Shown here: positions 1,915 to 23,328 of the stretch, one piece after another
Layout: the number at the start of each line of letters is the position of its first letter
Position numbering within the stretch: position 1 is the first letter of the stretch
Assembly (NCBI GenBank): GCA_017440585.1
Contig: JAFSGW010000099.1
Span: 42,436-106,435 of the forward strand
Direction of reading: 5' to 3'
Origin: Clostridia bacterium
GTDB lineage: Bacteria > Bacillota > Clostridia > UMGS1883
DNA: 64,000 nt
Notes under the pieces: model-generated
The model's input: only the letters and a program-made list of their open reading frames with translations
Databases searched by the model: none
What the model was told of the DNA's origin: nothing
Program-made: the position numbers and the translations under genes

Positions 1915-4008
1915 TTACTTTGAGTAGGGAACAAGCTCTAAAAGGCTTACCCATTCGTTTATGGAATTACCGTGACCTACAACCTTGATATAACGTACCT
2001 TTTCCTTGATGAGGGTATAATTGAATTCCACACCCTGAGGTGCATCGCCGTTGTAGTAAACCCTGTAGTTAACGCCGTCTACAGAAGCATGAATTTCATA
2101 CTTGGTGCTGCGTTCTGCAAACTTCCAGAAGGCTGCACAAACCATTTCAACATATTGCTCGCTTCCTAAGTCAAACACAATTTCACAGTCGCCCGTTGCA
2201 GCCCAGCGAGTCGCAATGTTGTTATCGAATGCATTTTCTGCAGGGTTTTCAGGCTCGGGGGTCTGGCTTGCTGTTGCTGAAACTATTTCAATTTTATTTT
2301 CGTTTTCTAATTCCGGTGTAACCACCTTATACTCCCAACCCTCCTGCTCGGGTCTTTCGGGAAGTGTGCCCGACTGAAGGATTTCCGAAAGCATGCCTGC
2401 AAGGGGAAGCTGCTGTGTGTAGAAGGGGTTTTCCTTACCGCCTATAATTATGAGCTTATGCTCGTTGTTCCAGTACACGTATTTGCCTAATGCCTCTGCC
2501 GCAACCCTTAAAGGAAGGTAGGTTCTGCCGTTTACAATAACGGGAGCGGTGTTTGCCGTGTGCTTTTCAGAGTCCACATAATAATTGGGGCTGTTTATAA
2601 CAAATTGAAGCACAGAATCGTCCTTAACCATTGTAACTGCCTGCAAATCTCCATTCCAGAGAACCTTTGCCTTTAAAGCCTCGCCCAATGCACGGAGGGG
2701 AACCATTGTAACGCCCTCTGTGTTAACAAAGGGTGGTGCATCAATCGCCTTTACGGCTATGCCGTTGTAAACGTTTTCTGCACCTACCTTAAGTGCTACA
2801 GTGCCCATTGTTTTACGTGTGAGGTAGGGATACATATCGCCCTGAACACCGCCATAGTAGCGTGCTGCCTCGCAAAGTGCATACAAGGTTGCACCAACAC
2901 CAAAGTTGAAGTTGCTCTCCAAATTTGTGGCATTTGTTGCCGCGGAGCCTATGTGCTGTGTGTAGCCCACAAAGCCGTCGGGATGAATTGCAGCCTCTGT
3001 TAAGTACTTGATGCCGCCCTCTGCATAGGGAAGATATGTTTCCTTATCAAGAAGCCCTGAGTTTATGCCGTAGTAGAGTGAATACGTGATAAAGCCCGTG
3101 CCGCTTGTTTCGTAGCCGTAGGGGTTCTGGTCACTTGTGGGGAAGTTTGCAAGCATGCTCTGTGTCCAGAAAACCCTGCCCTCGCTGTCGGTACGGGAGC
3201 AGTCAATACAAGCCTTTGCCATTTCAAGATATGTTTTCTTTATCTCGTCGTAATGCTCCCAGGATTGGGGAATATCTTCAAAAACACGGGCAAATGCTGC
3301 CATTACCCAGCCAACACCACGTGCCCATATGTTCTTTTGTCCGTTAACACGGCTTTTTATGTAGCCCGGGTCACGGAAGAAAAGATTTGCAGGCTCGCCC
3401 TCGTAATTTATACCGCCCTCGCCGTCATACATTCTCTGTTTGCACCATATAAAGGCACGGTACATAAAGTCAAGGTATTTTTCGTCCCCCGTTAAGGTGT
3501 AAAGCTTGGAATATACGGGCATTGCCATGTGAACGGCATCGCACCAGGTCCAGTAATCGTCTCTGCCGGTAGCAATCTGTGAATTTGTAATTTCCAGTGT
3601 GCGGGCAATTTTCTTTTCGTCCTGCTGTTTGTCAAGGTTGTAAAGGTCAATATAAACCTGGAAGCAGGTCTGGTTGTCCGCATGATAAACATTTGAATTG
3701 CCCTTCCATGAAGACGGGTCAGTGCTTCTGTGGCCCTGCCACTGGTTGTGCTCTGCCCATTTTGTGGCATAGTCACGGTACTTTTCAATACCTGTTAAAT
3801 AGTAGGCATCCATACAGCCTATGTAATAGGTTGCCACATCCCACTCATAGCCGGGAGTCCAGGTGTGAGTTGCTATCCAGTGGTCGTTAACCTTTTTCAC
3901 ATAGCCTTCAAGCTCCTCGTAGGTGTAGGCGTTATCTGCAAGTGCCATCTGCGGCACCATTGAGAGAAGCATTGCAAGGATTAGCAGTGTTGATAAAACT
4001 TTTTTCAT
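1915..4008 (-). CDS. Secreted GH105-family unsaturated uronyl hydrolase with copper-amine-oxidase-like N-terminal (stalk) domain and C-terminal F5/8 type C (CBM32-like) domain
   Basis: Signal peptide MKKVLSTLLILAMLLSMVPQMALA; HADNQ, WTWCDAVHMAMP, WARGVGW, ETSGT GH105/88 motifs; TMVPLRAL and GRTYLPLR stalk motifs; NAFDNNIATRW discoidin motif; AAGGAGG SD. Confidence 0.85.
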   Translation of the reverse strand: MKKVLSTLLILAMLLSMVPQMALADNAYTYEELEGYVKKVNDHWIATHTWTPGYEWDVATYYIGCMDAYYLTGIEKYRDYATKWAEHNQWQGHRSTDPSSWKGNSNVYHADNQTCFQVYIDLYNLDKQQDEKKIARTLEITNSQIATGRDDYWTWCDAVHMAMPVYSKLYTLTGDEKYLDFMYRAFIWCKQRMYDGEGGINYEGEPANLFFRDPGYIKSRVNGQKNIWARGVGWVMAAFARVFEDIPQSWEHYDEIKKTYLEMAKACIDCSRTDSEGRVFWTQSMLANFPTSDQNPYGYETSGTGFITYSLYYGINSGLLDKETYLPYAEGGIKYLTEAAIHPDGFVGYTQHIGSAATNATNLESNFNFGVGATLYALCEAARYYGGVQGDMYPYLTRKTMGTVALKVGAENVYNGIAVKAIDAPPFVNTEGVTMVPLRALGEALKAKVLWNGDLQAVTMVKDDSVLQFVINSPNYYVDSEKHTANTAPVIVNGRTYLPLRVAAEALGKYVYWNNEHKLIIIGGKENPFYTQQLPLAGMLSEILQSGTLPERPEQEGWEYKVVTPELENENKIEIVSATASQTPEPENPAENAFDNNIATRWAATGDCEIVFDLGSEQYVEMVCAAFWKFAERSTKYEIHASVDGVNYRVYYNGDAPQGVEFNYTLIKEKVRYIKVVGHGNSINEWVSLLELVPYSK

Positions 4009-4021
4009 TTTTATTTCCTCC

Positions 4022-4519
4022 TTAAATAAATTTAATATCATCAAGAATTCGTGAGAAGGCTTCAAGAAACTTTTTTGTTTCAGCATTTTCAAGGAGCAAT
4101 TTGCCCACCTTTTCCACGGCTTTTACAAAGTCGGGCTCAAAATCCTCCACATAAAGGGAGGAGAGAGGGCACATGCCGTTGGCACGGGGGTCAACAATAA
4201 CCTCTAATTCCCCGTCCTTTGCTATGTAAGGCGTTAAGGGGAAAATCCTGCAGGAGAGAGGCCGCAGATTTCTGTCACACACACCGTCGCAGGAAAAAAG
4301 CGGTGCAAATTTGCCTTTATCGTATTCAAAATCCGTTTCGGAAATGCTTGCCCAGGAGGGAAGTGAGGTATACATTTCCTCCTCAAAGGGGAAAAGGTAC
4401 ATTCCGTCCCCGTCCTTATCGCCCTCACAGCACGCCTTGTTGCAGGCTCTGCCACAGTCACCGCGGAGAGGGGTAAGGGTGCCTAAGGCAGCATAAATAT
4501 TATTATAAAAATCTTTCAT
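4022..4519 (-). CDS. Cys-cluster protein (YkgJ/CxxCxxCC-like)
   Basis: DCGRACNKACC, CDGVCDRNLRPLSCRIFP and GMCPL motifs; starts 5 nt after metA stop. Confidence 0.7.
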   Translation of the reverse strand: MKDFYNNIYAALGTLTPLRGDCGRACNKACCEGDKDGDGMYLFPFEEEMYTSLPSWASISETDFEYDKGKFAPLFSCDGVCDRNLRPLSCRIFPLTPYIAKDGELEVIVDPRANGMCPLSSLYVEDFEPDFVKAVEKVGKLLLENAETKKFLEAFSRILDDIKFI

Positions 4520-4524
4520 AACTA

Positions 4525-5457
4525 TTACCTGTTGCCTCCCGTGCAATCGTCAAGATTGTAGGGTGTTGTCTGGTATACAAAGTAGTTCAGCCAGTTGGAG
4601 AAAAGCAGGTCATTATGGCTTCTCCAGGTTACAAGGGGTGTGTTGTCGGGGTTATCGTCGGGGTAATAGTTTTTGGGCAGGGGAACATTGTCAAGCCCCT
4701 TTGCCATGTCACGCTTATATTCCTTGTCCAGTGTGTCGAACTCATATTCGCTGTGACCCGTTACGAAAACACGTGAATCGTCCTCGCTCTTTACAAGGTA
4801 AACCCCGGCTTCGTCACTTACAGCTAAAATGTTAAGGTCCTCATGCTTTTCAATATCGGACTGAAGCACCGTTGTGTGGCGTGAATGAGGTGCACGGAAC
4901 ACCTGGTCAAAGCCACGCATGAGACGGGAGGAGGGGTAGAGGTTTTTGTGCTCAAACACACCGAAAACCTTCTCGGGCAGTATAACCTTGTTTATGCCGT
5001 GGAAATAGTAAAGTGCCGCCTGAGCCGCCCAGCAGATAAACATACTGCTTGTAACGTTTGTTTTCGACCACTCAAAAATTTCGCACATTTCCTGCCAGTA
5101 GTCAACCTCTTCAAAGGGAATCATCTCCACGGGTGCACCTGTTACAATCATTGCATCGTAGCGGTTGTGCCTGATTTCCGCAAAGGTTGTGTAAAAGGTT
5201 TTAAGGTGCTCCTCGCTTGTGTTTTTCGATTCATGTGAGTCCATGCGGATGAAAATGGGCTCAATCTGTAAGGGGGTGTTGGAGAGTGCACGGAGAAGCT
5301 GTGTTTCCGTCGTTATTTTTGTGGGCATTATATTCACAATAACAATTTTAAGGGGACGGATGTCCTGACTTAAGGCACGTGTCTCCGTCATAACAAATAT
5401 ATTTTCACTCATAAGTGTTTTTGTTGCGGGTAAATCGTTAGGTATTTTAATAGGCAT
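4525..5457 (-). CDS. metA: Homoserine O-acyltransferase MetA (probably acetyl-CoA-specific)
   Basis: MPIKIP start, QDIRPL, TGAPVE (Glu at the specificity position), ICWAAQA catalytic Cys, PHSRH, GHSEY. Confidence 0.95.
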
Positions 5458-16012: not shown

Positions 16013-16024
16013 GTTATCTCTGTA

Positions 16025-16222
16025 GCGATATAAATCCCTGTCGGGATTTGCGATATTCCCCTTCGGGGAGCGATATACCTGCGGTGCGATATGTTCGGCT
16101 CTGCCGAACGTGTTATGGGTGTGAGGGATTTATAGCATATCGCATTTTCATTTTAATGAAAATATATCGCATCCGAATGAAATGAGGATATATCGCATTA
16201 TTCCGAAGGAATAATATATCGC
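16025..16222 (+). repeat. GCGATAT/ATATCGC hairpin-chain element, full copy 1
   Basis: GCGATAT at 16025, 16050, 16070, 16086 and ATATCGC at 16137, 16164, 16190, 16216, with a hairpin between successive motifs. Confidence 0.9.
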
Positions 16223-16237
16223 CAAACCGCTTTCCAA

Positions 16238-16278
16238 AATTCTGTGGCAATACACAAAATTTCGGAAAGTGAATATTG
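16238..16278 (+). repeat. 41-bp direct repeat, copy 1 (upstream of AAA ATPase)
   Basis: aattctgtggcaatacacaaaatttcggaaagtgaatattg; 40/41 identical to 17651-17691. Confidence 0.92.
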
Positions 16279-16304
16279 ACTTTAGGTAACGGGTATTATA
16301 TAAT
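16276..16304 (+). promoter_or_regulatory. Sigma-A promoter of AAA ATPase, between repeat copies
   Basis: TTGACT-17-TATAAT; the TTG of the -35 is the last 3 nt of repeat copy 1. Confidence 0.8.
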
Positions 16305-16320
16305 GGAATCGAAAAAACTA

Positions 16321-16349
16321 TGGCAATACACAAAATTTCGGGAAGTGAA
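16321..16349 (+). repeat. 29-bp core of the same repeat, copy 2 (5' UTR)
   Basis: tggcaatacacaaaatttcgggaagtgaa, identical to the core of 17651-17691. Confidence 0.9.
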
Positions 16350-16353
16350 GTTG

Positions 16354-17652
16354 ATGATTGAAAGAAAGAAGTATCTTGATAAATTAATAAGCAAAAAAGA
16401 AAATGGTCTTGTAAAGGTTATTACGGGTATTCGCAGAAGCGGAAAATCATACCTTCTTTTCAATATTTATAAAAGCTACCTGCTTTCTGTCGGGGTCGGT
16501 GAGGATTGCATTATTGAGCTTGCCCTTGATGATGATGAAAATATAAGGTACCGTAACCCCTTGGAGCTTGGTGAATATCTGAGAAACAGGACGGCAGACA
16601 AGGAAAGAATGTATTATGTTTTCCTTGATGAAATACAAAAGGTTGTAACCATTCAGAACCCATATATAAAGGATGTTGAAGATAAAATCGGGTTTGTAGA
16701 TGTTCTTTTGGGGCTTATGAAACGCGAAAATATAGATCTGTATGTTACGGGCAGTAATTCAAAAATGCTCTCGTCGGATATTTTGACGGAGTTTCGCGGC
16801 AGAGGCGATGAAATAAGGGTTAACCCGTTATCCTTCGGCGAGTTTTATAGTGCATTCCCCGGCGATAGGCATGACGCATGGCAGGAATACTGTACTTACG
16901 GAGGATTGCCTCTTGTTTTAAAAAAGCAAACTCACGAAGAAAAGGCAAAATACCTTCAAACCTTGTTCGATAAAATATACTTGAGCGACATAATGGAAAG
17001 AAACAAAATACTTTACGAGAAAACAGTTTTAGATGATATACTGAACATTGTGTCATCTTCTATTGGCTCACTTACAAATGCAAACAATATTGCGAAAACC
17101 TTTAAAAGCAATAAGCAAATCAGTATTGATACGACAACTGTAGCTCGGTATCTGGACTTGTTTATTGATGCGTTTCTCATTTTTAAGGCGGAGCGCTACG
17201 ACGTAAAGGGCAGAAAATATATAGGCTCGCCTTTGAAATACTATTTTTCTGACATAGGGCTTCGTAACGCAAGGCTACAGTTCCGGCAGATGGAAGAAAA
17301 TCATATAATGGAAAACATTATTTATAACGAGCTTATATACCGTGAGTTCAATGTGGATGTGGGCGTTGTCGAATACTTTTATCGTGGCGAAGACAAAAAG
17401 AGCAAACGTGCAAGTCTTGAAATTGATTTTATTGCAAATAAAGGCAGTCAGAAATATTATATTCAATCTGCCTTATCGGTAGCCGATGAAGAAAAACGAA
17501 ATCAGGAAATACGCTCACTTAAAAACGTGGGGGACTCTTTCAAAAAAATTGTGGTTGTGAAGGATAATATCATACCTTATAATGATGAAAACGGAATTTT
17601 CTATATCGGCATTGAGCAGTTTTTGCTTGACGAGAGTATAATGAATGGGTAA
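16354..17652 (+). CDS. AAA+ ATPase (AAA_14 plus DUF4143 family)
   Basis: Walker A GIRRSGKS, Walker B VFLDE, TGSNS, FRGR, YGGLP, KYYFSDIGLRNA, ENIIYNEL, EIDF..YIQS. Confidence 0.9.
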   Translation: MIERKKYLDKLISKKENGLVKVITGIRRSGKSYLLFNIYKSYLLSVGVGEDCIIELALDDDENIRYRNPLELGEYLRNRTADKERMYYVFLDEIQKVVTIQNPYIKDVEDKIGFVDVLLGLMKRENIDLYVTGSNSKMLSSDILTEFRGRGDEIRVNPLSFGEFYSAFPGDRHDAWQEYCTYGGLPLVLKKQTHEEKAKYLQTLFDKIYLSDIMERNKILYEKTVLDDILNIVSSSIGSLTNANNIAKTFKSNKQISIDTTTVARYLDLFIDAFLIFKAERYDVKGRKYIGSPLKYYFSDIGLRNARLQFRQMEENHIMENIIYNELIYREFNVDVGVVEYFYRGEDKKSKRASLEIDFIANKGSQKYYIQSALSVADEEKRNQEIRSLKNVGDSFKKIVVVKDNIIPYNDENGIFYIGIEQFLLDESIMNG

Positions 17653-17691
17653 TTCTGTGGCAATACACAAAATTTCGGGAAGTGAATATTG
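17651..17691 (+). repeat. 41-bp direct repeat, copy 3 (overlaps ATPase stop codon)
   Basis: aattctgtggcaatacacaaaatttcgggaagtgaatattg. Confidence 0.92.
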
Positions 17692-17703
17692 CTCATTACT
17701 CAT

Positions 17704-17752
17704 TGTATTTAATGTCAAGAATTTTGCAAATAAATTCTTGACATTAAATACA
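17704..17752. repeat. Perfect 21-bp inverted repeat overlapping the rpsO -35 box
   Basis: tgtatttaatgtcaagaattt-tgcaaat-aaattcttgacattaaataca. Confidence 0.85.
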
Positions 17753-20537: not shown

Positions 20538-21764
20538 ATGAATAAGATTACAACTTTAAAAAACGGACTCAGGATAATAACCGAGGTTATGCCCGGTGCA
20601 CAGAGCGTTTTTGTGGGCGTGTGGGTCAAGGCAGGAAGTGCCAACGAAAAGGACAGTGAGTGGGGCATAAGCCACTTTATTGAGCACATGGTTTTCAAGG
20701 GCACAGAAAAAAGAACCGCACAACAGATAAGCGAAGAAACAGACTATGTTGGCGGTCAGGCAAATGCCTTTACATCCAGGGACTGCACCTGCTACTACTC
20801 AAGAACGCTTCCTGAGCATATGGAGCTTTCCTTCGACATCCTTTCCGACATTTACCATAACCCCCGTCTTTTAAAGAAGGATATTGACCTTGAGAGGGGC
20901 GTTATAAAAGAGGAAATCATGATGTATGAGGACTGCCCCGAGGATCTGGTTCAGGACAGGCTTCTTGCTGCAGTTTACCCCGACAGTGCAATAGGAAGGG
21001 AAATTGCAGGCAGTTTGGAGTCGGTAGATGGCTTGAACCGTGAAAAAATGGTTGACTATATGAACCGTTATTACACTCCCGACAACACGGTTATAACCGT
21101 TTGCGGAAGGTTTGACGAAAAGATGGCAATAAGCCTTTGCGAAAAGTATTTCTCCCACCGTATCACAGCCTTCTCCGGCAACAGGGTAATTGTGCCCCGT
21201 TTTGAAAGCGTTGACGTAAGGTGGGAAAAGGACATTGAGCAGGCTCATTTGTGCCTTTCCTATCCTACAGTAAAGCTTGGAAGCGACAAGGAAAGCTATA
21301 CATTATCTGCCTTAAGTAACATTTTCGGCGGAAGCATGTCCAGTAGGCTTTTCAACAAGGTCCGTGAGGAACGTGGCCTTTGCTACAGCGTTTATTCCTA
21401 CTCCTCCCAGACAGAGGTTTCGGGGCTTTTCAGCATTTATACAGGTCTTAATGCAAATTGCCTTAATGCTGCTGAAGAGGTTATACATAATGAGATAGCA
21501 CGCCTTTTAAAGGATGGCATAACCGACTACGAGCTTACAAAGGGCAAGGAACAGCTTAAGGCGGCAATTCTTATGGATATGGAAAACCCCTCAAGCCGTA
21601 TGAGTGCACTTGGCAAGGATATGCTCATTTATAACTCTGTTAAGCCTATTGAAGAAATTGTAAGAGATATCGACTCTGTCACAAAGCATGACATTGAAGA
21701 GGCGGCACATATGGTTTTTGAAAAAAGAGGTGCACGTGGTGTGCTTCTGCCCATTGAGAGGTAA
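20538..21764 (+). CDS. M16 family zinc peptidase (MlpA/YmxG-like)
   Basis: HFIEH motif, NAFTS, SSRLFNKVREERGLCYSV; usual position after pnp. Confidence 0.92.
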   Translation: MNKITTLKNGLRIITEVMPGAQSVFVGVWVKAGSANEKDSEWGISHFIEHMVFKGTEKRTAQQISEETDYVGGQANAFTSRDCTCYYSRTLPEHMELSFDILSDIYHNPRLLKKDIDLERGVIKEEIMMYEDCPEDLVQDRLLAAVYPDSAIGREIAGSLESVDGLNREKMVDYMNRYYTPDNTVITVCGRFDEKMAISLCEKYFSHRITAFSGNRVIVPRFESVDVRWEKDIEQAHLCLSYPTVKLGSDKESYTLSALSNIFGGSMSSRLFNKVREERGLCYSVYSYSSQTEVSGLFSIYTGLNANCLNAAEEVIHNEIARLLKDGITDYELTKGKEQLKAAILMDMENPSSRMSALGKDMLIYNSVKPIEEIVRDIDSVTKHDIEEAAHMVFEKRGARGVLLPIER

Positions 21765-21842
21765 TTAGCAATTAGCAATTAGCAATGAGCAATTAGCAAT
21801 TAAGGTAAAAGGCGGTCAATGACCGCCTTTTTTGTATTGATT
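21762..21842 (+). repeat. Heptamer tract plus terminator hairpin; direct repeat R1
   Basis: t(aatKagc)5-aattaaggt-aaaaggcggtc-aat-gaccgcctttttt-gtattgatt. Confidence 0.92.
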
Positions 21843-21959
21843 AAAAGCATTTGAAAACAATGTTCGCCGTAAAAAGTGTAACTGTTCAGCAAAAAAACGT
21901 TGTATTTTTTGTGATTTGGTGTTATGCTATACTTGTATTATAATTACGGAGGTGCGTGT

Positions 21960-23267
21960 ATGTACCGAATTGCTATTGAAGAGCTATTTAAATGGAAACA
22001 AAGCAAACGCCGAAAACCTTTGATTATCGAAGGTGCCCGTCAGGTTGGTAAAACCTGGCTGATGAAAGAGTTTGGCAGGCAGGCGTATGCAGATACCATA
22101 TATATCAATTTTGATTCCAATTCCCAAATGGCAGAGCTGTTCTCTTCTGATTTGGATACAGAACGTTTGATTATGGGGCTGGAGCTGTATGCAGGACGAA
22201 AAATTGACCCTGAAAATGCTTTGCTGATTTTTGATGAAGTGCAAGAGGTTCCAAGAGCACTCAGCTCTCTTAAATATTTCTATGAAAATGCACCGCAGTA
22301 TCACATTATATGTGCCGGTTCCCTGCTTGGTATTGCTTTGCATCAGGGTACATCATTCCCTGTGGGCAAGGTGGATTTTTTGAAGCTGTATCCTCTCTCT
22401 TTCAAGGAGTTTTTGATGGCAACCGATAAAGAACGGTTTGCAGAACTGATTGATAAAAAAGACTTCCGGATGATTACAAGCTTCAAGCAAACATATATTG
22501 ATGCCCTGAAGCATTATTACTTTGTTGGCGGTATGCCCGAAGCCGTACAGAGCTTTGCAGAAAACAAAGATTTTAACGAGGTTCGTGAAATTCAAAGGCG
22601 AATCCTCGCAGCCTATGAACAGGATTTTTCCAAGCATGCTCCCAACGAAATTGTGCCCAGACTTCGTATGCTGTGGAACAGCATTCCTTCTCAGCTGGCG
22701 AAAGAAAACAAGAAGTTCATCTATGGTATTGTTCGTGAGGGTGCCCGTGCGAAGGACTACGAAACTGCGATTATGTGGCTTTGTGATTGCGGTCTTGTTC
22801 ATAAAATCACCCGCGTCAATACGGCAGGCATCCCTTTGAGGGCGTATGAGGACCTGAAAGCATTTAAGCTGTTTATGGCAGATGTTGGTCTCCTTGGCTG
22901 CATGGCAGGTCTTCGTCAGAGCACTTTGCTTGACGGCAACGACCTTTTTGTTGAGTTCAAGGGTGCACTTACGGAGCAGTATGTTTGTCAGCAGTTAAAG
23001 ACCATTCCGGATTTAGATGTTTACTATTATACCAATGACAGAGGCTCCTGTGAGGTTGACTTTGTCGTTGATACAGGCGAATTGATTGTTCCTGTTGAAG
23101 TAAAGGCAGAGGTTAACCTCAGAGCTAAAAGCCTTAAGACGTACCGGGAAAAGTTTTCTCCTGAGGTTTCTGTTCGTACATCTATGGCAGACTATAAAAA
23201 AGAAGAATGGCTCGTTAATCTGCCACTGTATGCGATAGATCAGATTAAGGGTATTGAAAATAATTAG
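21960..23267 (+). CDS. AAA+ ATPase (AAA_14 plus DUF4143 family)
   Basis: GARQVGKT, LIFDEVQ, AGSLLG, FPVGKV, GGMPE, EVDFV..PVEVK; GGAGG SD. Confidence 0.92.
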   Translation: MYRIAIEELFKWKQSKRRKPLIIEGARQVGKTWLMKEFGRQAYADTIYINFDSNSQMAELFSSDLDTERLIMGLELYAGRKIDPENALLIFDEVQEVPRALSSLKYFYENAPQYHIICAGSLLGIALHQGTSFPVGKVDFLKLYPLSFKEFLMATDKERFAELIDKKDFRMITSFKQTYIDALKHYYFVGGMPEAVQSFAENKDFNEVREIQRRILAAYEQDFSKHAPNEIVPRLRMLWNSIPSQLAKENKKFIYGIVREGARAKDYETAIMWLCDCGLVHKITRVNTAGIPLRAYEDLKAFKLFMADVGLLGCMAGLRQSTLLDGNDLFVEFKGALTEQYVCQQLKTIPDLDVYYYTNDRGSCEVDFVVDTGELIVPVEVKAEVNLRAKSLKTYREKFSPEVSVRTSMADYKKEEWLVNLPLYAIDQIKGIENN

Positions 23268-23328
23268 CAATTAGCAATTAGCAATTAAGGTAAAAAGGCG
23301 GTCAATGACCGCCTTTTTTGTATTGATT
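23261..23328 (+). repeat. Heptamer tract plus terminator hairpin; direct repeat R2
   Basis: t(aattagc)3-aattaaggt-aaaaaggcggtc-aat-gaccgcctttttt-gtattgatt; supplies the ATPase TAG stop. Confidence 0.92.

Follow-up and report, generated by a model that had tools for sequence, protein, structure and literature searches.

A repeat bracketing a PDC-S01 ATPase gene in a Clostridia bacterium is best read as the predicted private operator of its cassette

Why does a single ATPase gene, set among housekeeping genes, carry three copies of one 41-nt repeat, two at its ends and one in its leader? The gene lies on contig JAFSGW010000099.1 of a Clostridia bacterium (assembly GCA_017440585.1, 2.23 Mb in all; G000 below), in a stretch of 64,000 nt that was analysed as a whole and that we call the window. 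The first-pass annotation had taken the repeat to be an autoregulatory operator and, at the same time, a mobility or recombination site. The explanation that we prefer, with a probability of roughly 0.55, is that of a horizontally moving PDC-S01 cassette whose repeat would be its private operator, the copy behind the gene being a duplicate of the first copy that has since been kept.

The three copies belong to one repeat family on the plus strand: R1 (16238–16278, the reference), R2 (16314–16354, 80% identical) and R3 (17651–17691, 98% identical), designated O1, O2 and O3 when regarded as operators. Their starts are 76 bp (R1 to R2) and 1337 bp (R2 to R3) apart, which places R1 and R3 at a distance of 1413 bp. 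The layout described in the first-pass annotation is confirmed by the coordinates. A 41-bp repeat with one mismatch stands at both ends of the cassette, the left copy supplies the TTG of the −35 box with its last three bases, the right copy begins within the TAA stop codon (17650–17652), and the 29-nt core recurs exactly in R2, between the −10 box and the start codon. The window contains this core three times (with 1, 0 and 0 mismatches), whereas 100 shuffles predict 0.00 occurrences, and a search of the complete 2.23-Mb assembly found the repeat only in the three copies at the cassette. An inner TGTG-N6-CACA palindrome is common to all of them. R1 lies inside a full nested palindrome (16228–16271, so that the whole O1 element spans 16228–16278), and its single strand (16225–16285) folds at −19.2 kcal/mol, with a z-score of −5.0.

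The promoter of the cassette, TTGACT-17-TATAAT at 16276–16304, scores 11/12, and its −35 and −10 boxes are conserved across five aligned cassettes. The 3′ end of R2 supplies the ribosome-binding purines of the AAA_14 + DUF4143 gene (16354–17652, plus strand, 432 aa), which starts at the ATG at 16354 and is the only gene encoded between R1 and R3. Behind the gene, a perfect 21-bp hairpin (17704–17752) is terminator-like for the cassette, and its right arm includes the −35 box of the rpsO promoter. This hairpin is found in the congener G003 and is missing from the sites of G002 and G006 that lack the cassette; its left arm looks as if the target had been copied there, in inverted orientation, at the insert's right edge. 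The flanking genes encode a PfkB sugar kinase and include rpsO and pnp. No integrase or transposase family was detected in a Pfam scan of the 13 ORFs of at least 150 aa between 5520 and 31119, nor among the six proteins profiled at the cassette and its neighbors, as the first-pass annotation had stated for the vicinity of the gene.

The encoded protein matches AAA_14 over residues 20–164 (91.9 bits, cut-off 27, E 4e-26) and, following it, DUF4143 over residues 212–371 (69.7 bits, cut-off 28.1, E 3e-19). The PADLOC PDC-S01 model PDLC04787 is matched by residues 1–427 of 432 (E 2.1e-104), and the gene stands as a single-gene unit among housekeeping neighbors. It thus resembles PDC-S01 (AAA_14 + DUF4143; COG1373) in the full-length model match, the two Pfam domains and the single-gene organization, which bears out its assignment to a single-gene defence candidate, PDC-S01 itself being a bioinformatic candidate. 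No NCBIfam model matched the 432-aa protein, and a PDB sequence search with it gave no match. An AlphaFold2 model built on 80 relatives (pLDDT 90.6, pTM 0.90) predicts a protein made up of four parts, namely a P-loop ATPase, a helical domain, a helix-turn-helix bearing a beta wing, and an alpha/beta C-terminal domain. The modelled winged helix comprises approximately residues 243–298, with helices at 243–254 and 260–272 and strands at 276–298. The top fold matches of the model are the archaeal AAA+ ATPases SSO1545 and PABY2304; STAND proteins (Apaf-1, CED-4, MalT and plant NLRs) and Orc1/Cdc6 initiators (2qby, 2v1u, 1w5s, 1fnn), including complexes with origin DNA, are among the best. As modelled, the protein is a STAND/Orc-like AAA+ ATPase with a winged helix and a PD-(D/E)xK-like C-terminal domain. 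Across the 80 sequences, neither the Walker A and B residues nor E320, E356 and D358 vary, and Q371 and K398 are almost invariant. With the presumed placement of the motif, residues 370–373 at the expected ExK position are IQSA, and the canonical (D/E)xK lysine is missing from that place.

The 41-nt repeat is best read as the private operator of the cassette, a prediction drawn from sequence comparison. The palindromic site lies across the promoter of the cassette gene and accompanies that gene from locus to locus, since the homology shared with cassettes at other loci starts at the left edge of R1. The congeners G003 and G007, which carry the cassette at the orthologous locus, have three copies each with spacings of 76 nt and roughly 1340 nt, as in G000. 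A 16-nt core is identical in all nine copies of these three genomes, whose cassette genes are only 82–83% identical. Among 41 related genomes, R copies are confined to these three, with three copies in each, and outside the cassette genomes the 20-nt core has a single match, with two mismatches, in G033.

The same organization recurs in more distant relatives. We surveyed 80 subfamily loci from public genomes (48–80% protein identity) of Lachnospiraceae, Oscillospiraceae, Mycoplasma, Treponema, Succinivibrio, Bacteroides, Collinsella and others. A strong palindrome lies within 170 nt upstream of the gene in 41 of 78 usable loci, compared with 2 of 78 control stretches inside the gene. At least two copies of the palindrome core are present upstream in 31/67 loci, and 18 of the 32 spacings between such copies fall at 74–78 nt; the 76 bp that separate R1 and R2 are the modal spacing. 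Relatives in several phyla share this layout with different site sequences, and the type of palindrome changes between clades together with variable positions at the start of the recognition helix. The site TGTG..CACA pairs with D(T/A)(T/A)TV(A/G)RYLDLF, TGCGTAT..ATACGCA with S(S/P)STIS(K/T)Y(I/L)DYF, TGCGGAT..ATCCGCA with GSETIEKYIGYF, and GTAGAATTCTAC with DKQTVENYIGYF. Such covariation of site and helix is what a self-operator predicts, and it is confounded by shared descent, which gives the same pattern. The operator half of the earlier proposal therefore gains comparative support, from the twin palindromes placed about 76 bp apart around the promoter and their covariation with the recognition helix.

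We propose that the two upstream copies would act together. R1 overlaps the −35 box and R2 covers the predicted transcript start 76 bp, or about seven helical turns, away, so that a protein seated on both would shut the promoter. The cassette encodes only this one protein, which makes it the obvious candidate binder, and the likeliest part to do so would be its own winged helix, acting as an oligomer.

Two known arrangements are comparable. In autoregulated mobile restriction-modification systems, a controller (C) protein acts at a C-box. The likeness lies in a portable palindromic operator over the promoter of a horizontally moving nuclease-type gene, with a helix-turn-helix reader (here predicted) encoded in the same unit. 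In the cassette, however, regulator and effector would be one polypeptide, and the sites form a 76-bp pair with a further copy at the 3′ side. The Orc1/Cdc6 initiators likewise have an AAA+ module followed by a winged helix, and repeated sites adjoin the protein's own gene. They differ from the cassette protein, which has an additional nuclease-like domain and sites that bracket a promoter, and which shows no sign of a role in replication.

The copy behind the gene requires a separate account. R3 is identical to R1 at 40 of 41 positions, including the non-palindromic bases GAATATTG with the −35 TTG. This match extends beyond the palindrome, indicating that R3 arose by duplication rather than by convergence. 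About 13–18% of relatives carry a 3′ copy. In 11/73 loci, compared with 3/438 mismatched pairs, a repeat scoring at least 16 is shared by the 170 nt upstream of the start and the 150 nt downstream of the stop, and an operator core occurs within 150 nt after the stop in 9/68 loci, where 0.014 would be expected per locus. Conversely, the 3′ copy is missing from 62/73 loci by repeat score and from 59/68 by operator core, and it is decayed in a relocated cassette of G006 (contig C4). The 3′ copy is thus dispensable for the family. A 96%-identical strain contig joins 17652 to 17755 without a 3′ copy; the letters between are not known. When present, the copy lies 1 to 30 nt behind the stop in 10 of 11 operator-type loci, and it precedes the terminator wherever a terminator is visible, including L050 and L057.

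Flanking duplication is a wider tendency of the family. Each gene was scored by its best ungapped repeat linking the 500 nt upstream of the start to the 500 nt downstream of the stop, and repeats that scored at least 17 were counted. Such repeats were found in 15/71 subfamily loci and in 3/32 more diverse family genes from relatives, compared with 2/568 mismatched-partner pairs, 0/71 reversed controls and 3/85 neighboring genes, one of which is itself a family gene, leaving 2/84. The survey of DUF4143 genes for flanking direct repeats that the first-pass annotation had proposed thus reveals an enrichment, 18/103 family genes against 2/84 non-family neighbors (pooled Fisher p 7e-4). The repeats are of two kinds, namely operator copies and outer repeats of 29–101 nt, the latter being pieces of local DNA such as terminators and the ends of neighboring genes. 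The right copy of an outer repeat frequently begins at the stop codon, with its start within −5 to +30 in 7/13 cases.

Two of the outer cases have empty sites with a single copy. One is the G006 C4 cassette, which is flanked by a 30-nt outer repeat and whose empty sites are found in G003 (C1) and G010 (C117). The other is a second AAA_14 + DUF4143 gene in the window itself (ORF 21924–23267, likely start 21960). It is flanked by a 66-nt direct repeat (21777–21842 and 23262–23328) made of the stop codon of the upstream peptidase gene, AATTAGC heptads and a terminator, and its own stop codon lies inside the right copy. Single-copy empty sites are present in G007 (C29) and G009 (C31), and the same cassette occurs elsewhere in G006 (C14). 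The second gene (21777–23328) represents a clean case of insertion with long target duplication. At the edges of several family cassettes in different genomes, short arrays of 7-nt units (AATTAGN, ACTGATC) are seen: L007 (reverse complement, 1001–1035), the window (21762–21805) and L060 (4428–4458 and 6023–6218).

Insertion with long target duplication was described for restriction-modification genes by Furuta, Abe and Kobayashi (2010, PMC2853133), and, measured against the accessible text of that paper, the second family gene has all the features given for it. The first cassette resembles these insertions in having no mobility genes and direct repeats longer than 30 bp (41 nt, one mismatch). 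Its repeat, read as its own operator, is absent from the empty sites and hence is not a duplication of the kdgK–rpsO target.

Several further candidates were set aside. The G006 C4 site was considered as an integrase att site, and the 5-kb inserts found there in G001 and G007 consist of PPTase, hydrolase, condensation and AMP-binding genes and thus do not form an integrative element. A paralogue on contig C37 (L005) has a 33-nt terminator repeat with only these two copies; it was rejected as a clean target duplication, the repeat being missing from the G007 and G009 empty sites, which lack a 2.3-kb block. L167, with a 100-nt repeat, was rejected as a clean empty-site case, as its right flank has no collinear match in nine congeners. 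A 2630-bp circular record of Prevotella nigrescens (L189/L190) contains a family gene together with part of a methylase specificity gene. An identical stretch occurs in the chromosome, where it is flanked by two Eco57I-like genes next to an Mpi-type invertase. A repeat of matching spacing was not found, and the record was not accepted as a cassette circle. Separately, one MAG contig (L051, 1–6153) has three family genes in a span of 6 kb, and the third of them (3861–5087) is flanked by an approximately 77-nt repeat that copies the 3′ end of the neighboring nitroreductase gene.

Within our preferred explanation, R3 would have originated when the 41 nt of R1 were duplicated at the 3′ edge, one instance of this family-wide habit of flanking duplication. 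Its core would have been kept since, most simply as an auxiliary operator that loops to R1/R2 or stops read-through from reaching the rpsO promoter. Auxiliary operators that act by DNA looping are familiar from lac (O1/O2/O3) and gal (OE/OI). The cassette resembles them in pairing a main operator, here a predicted one, over the promoter with a distant copy that lies inside or behind the gene, and differs in that its looping is suggested by layout alone. In G007, a 103-aa ORF without a Pfam family (L008, contig C18, 1109–1417, minus strand) lies about 85 nt downstream of R3, before rpsO, and R3 could serve as its operator.

That R3 and R1 are nearly identical even outside the palindrome is explained equally well by function and by a recent copy or gene conversion. 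R3 may instead be a functionless scar, with only R1 and R2 of importance. It would then be either the remaining left end of a second tandem copy that was lost, or an incidental product of the insertion or amplification process behind the flanking duplications of many family members. Several observations are in line with this. The identity runs past the palindrome into the −35 TTG, the 3′ copy of L050 (42 nt, one mismatch to the 5′-UTR copy) includes the ribosome-binding bases, the 3′ copy is so often missing or, as in G006 C4, decayed, and the duplications enriched in the family (15/71 and 3/32 against 2/84) involve many unrelated sequences. However, three species share the R3 core without a difference, their genes differing at 17–18% of bases, and the G007 R3 is a near-perfect palindrome of its own with 13-nt arms, not a decaying copy of R1. 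We consider a functionless R3 unlikely, while granting it a real share of the probability, and favor retention of R3 as a further operator copy.

The mobility of the unit is evident from comparison between congeners. The states of the kdgK–rpsO interval could be determined for the genus genomes G000, G002, G003 and G005–G007, the other assemblies being fragmented. The interval holds the cassette in G000, G003 and G007, is empty in G002 and G006, and contains a rhamnosidase gene in G005. G006 encodes an 86%-identical protein at another locus (C4), where nucleotide homology runs from 16237 to 17658. For cassettes in other contexts, homology starts at 16238 (L040), 16243 (L043) or 16250 (L011) and ends at about 17633. 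Overall, the left edge falls at 16237–16250 and the right edge at 17633–17658, and therefore the conserved unit extends from the left edge of R1 to the stop codon. The claim of a self-contained unit is thus sustained, as the cassette has been gained, lost and relocated among congeners.

The recombination half of the earlier proposal is not supported. It had anticipated a one-repeat empty site between kdgK and rpsO in relatives, and no copy of R is present in the empty sites of G002 and G006. Nor was an orphan R copy found in 37 other relatives. Together these observations indicate that the empty sites were not produced by R1–R3 recombination. No R1–R3 joint was listed in assembled Logan contigs of runs X2, X4, X5 and X6, a kind of contig that cannot show rare forms. 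What occurs at different loci is the unit that begins with R1 and ends with the stop codon; recombination between R copies as its means of movement is unsupported, and the data can be explained without it.

These results bear on the proposal that R1 and R3 are att-like sites, between which the cassette excises as a 1413-bp circle (stop codon joined to R) and re-integrates, through its own ATPase-nuclease or a host enzyme. Such sites would agree with repeats that bound exactly the unit conserved between loci, with a right copy that overlaps the stop codon, with the start of the right repeat at −5 to +30 of the stop in the 10 of 11 operator-type and 7 of 13 outer cases, and with a cassette polymorphic in presence and location. 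Against them stand the empty sites without R, the lack of orphan copies in the 37 relatives and the scarcity of the 3′ copy among relatives; in addition, no recombinase family was detected in the scanned ORFs of 5520–31119. Integrase/att elements and integron cassettes form a poor parallel in the same respect, as no recombinase gene was detected in or beside this unit. We regard att-like recombination as improbable, and continue to favor the operator.

A bolder proposal is that the ATPase-nuclease itself moves its gene by binding the end palindromes and then excising, copying or inserting the cassette, with ATP-driven DNA handling and the nuclease domain leaving long, variable duplications. 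If so, PDC-S01 would be a new class of one-gene mobile element without transposase, integrase or HUH enzyme, and one of the commonest "defence" calls in prokaryotes would be recast as a selfish element. We consider this a long shot.

That the repeat acts in RNA, with R2 (5′ UTR) and R3 (3′ UTR) bound by protein or affecting mRNA stability or translation, is barely credible: the predicted transcript does contain both copies, and the 3′ copy precedes the terminator in L050 and L057, but neither the R2 nor the R3 RNA is folded more stably than shuffled sequences (z −0.46 and −1.66), the sole strong hairpin is R1, outside the transcript from this promoter, and none of the Rfam families matches the repeats.

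With the repeat read as a private operator, PDC-S01 gains a concrete candidate DNA target: a private palindrome, present as a promoter pair 76 bp apart and sometimes as a third copy behind the gene. The locus and its relatives define the moving unit as running from the first palindrome to the stop codon. In addition, flanking duplications are in excess in the family, which ties it to an old and unexplained phenomenon of restriction-modification genes, "insertion with long target duplication". The gene itself is in a known candidate family; the new content is the architecture of twin operators plus a 3′ copy, and the defined cassette borders. PDC-S01 is a bioinformatic phage-defence candidate, and the published passages on DUF4143 and PDC-S01 that were consulted describe no operators or flanking repeats of the family, nor, for PDC-S01, any cassette borders. 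According to the accessible parts of three studies, PDC-S01 ranks fourth in frequency among defence calls in prokaryotes (PMC12988326) and the most frequent single locus in rumen genomes (PMC13356809), and COG1373 is listed among genes shared between gut genera (PMC10782964). Relatives are also encoded on 217 plasmid records at an E-value of 1e-30 or better, of which 170 are from Acinetobacter, and on 13 phage records at 1e-20 or better.

Finally, the DNA directly to the left of the cassette contains interspersed elements. Between kdgK and R1 lies an array of short hairpins (16023–16226), each adjoining GCGATAT or ATATCGC. Its first part, 16023–16097, matches the Rfam Gut-1 RNA at 41.5 bits, below the cut-off of 50. 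Of the 43 Gut-1 matches in the genome, 17 exceed the cut-off and many lie at contig ends; Gut-1 therefore behaves as an interspersed repeat here. One Gut-1 copy stands directly upstream of the paralogous cassette on contig C37. In a strain contig from run X5, the cassette is kept and 50 other letters replace the Gut-1 element.
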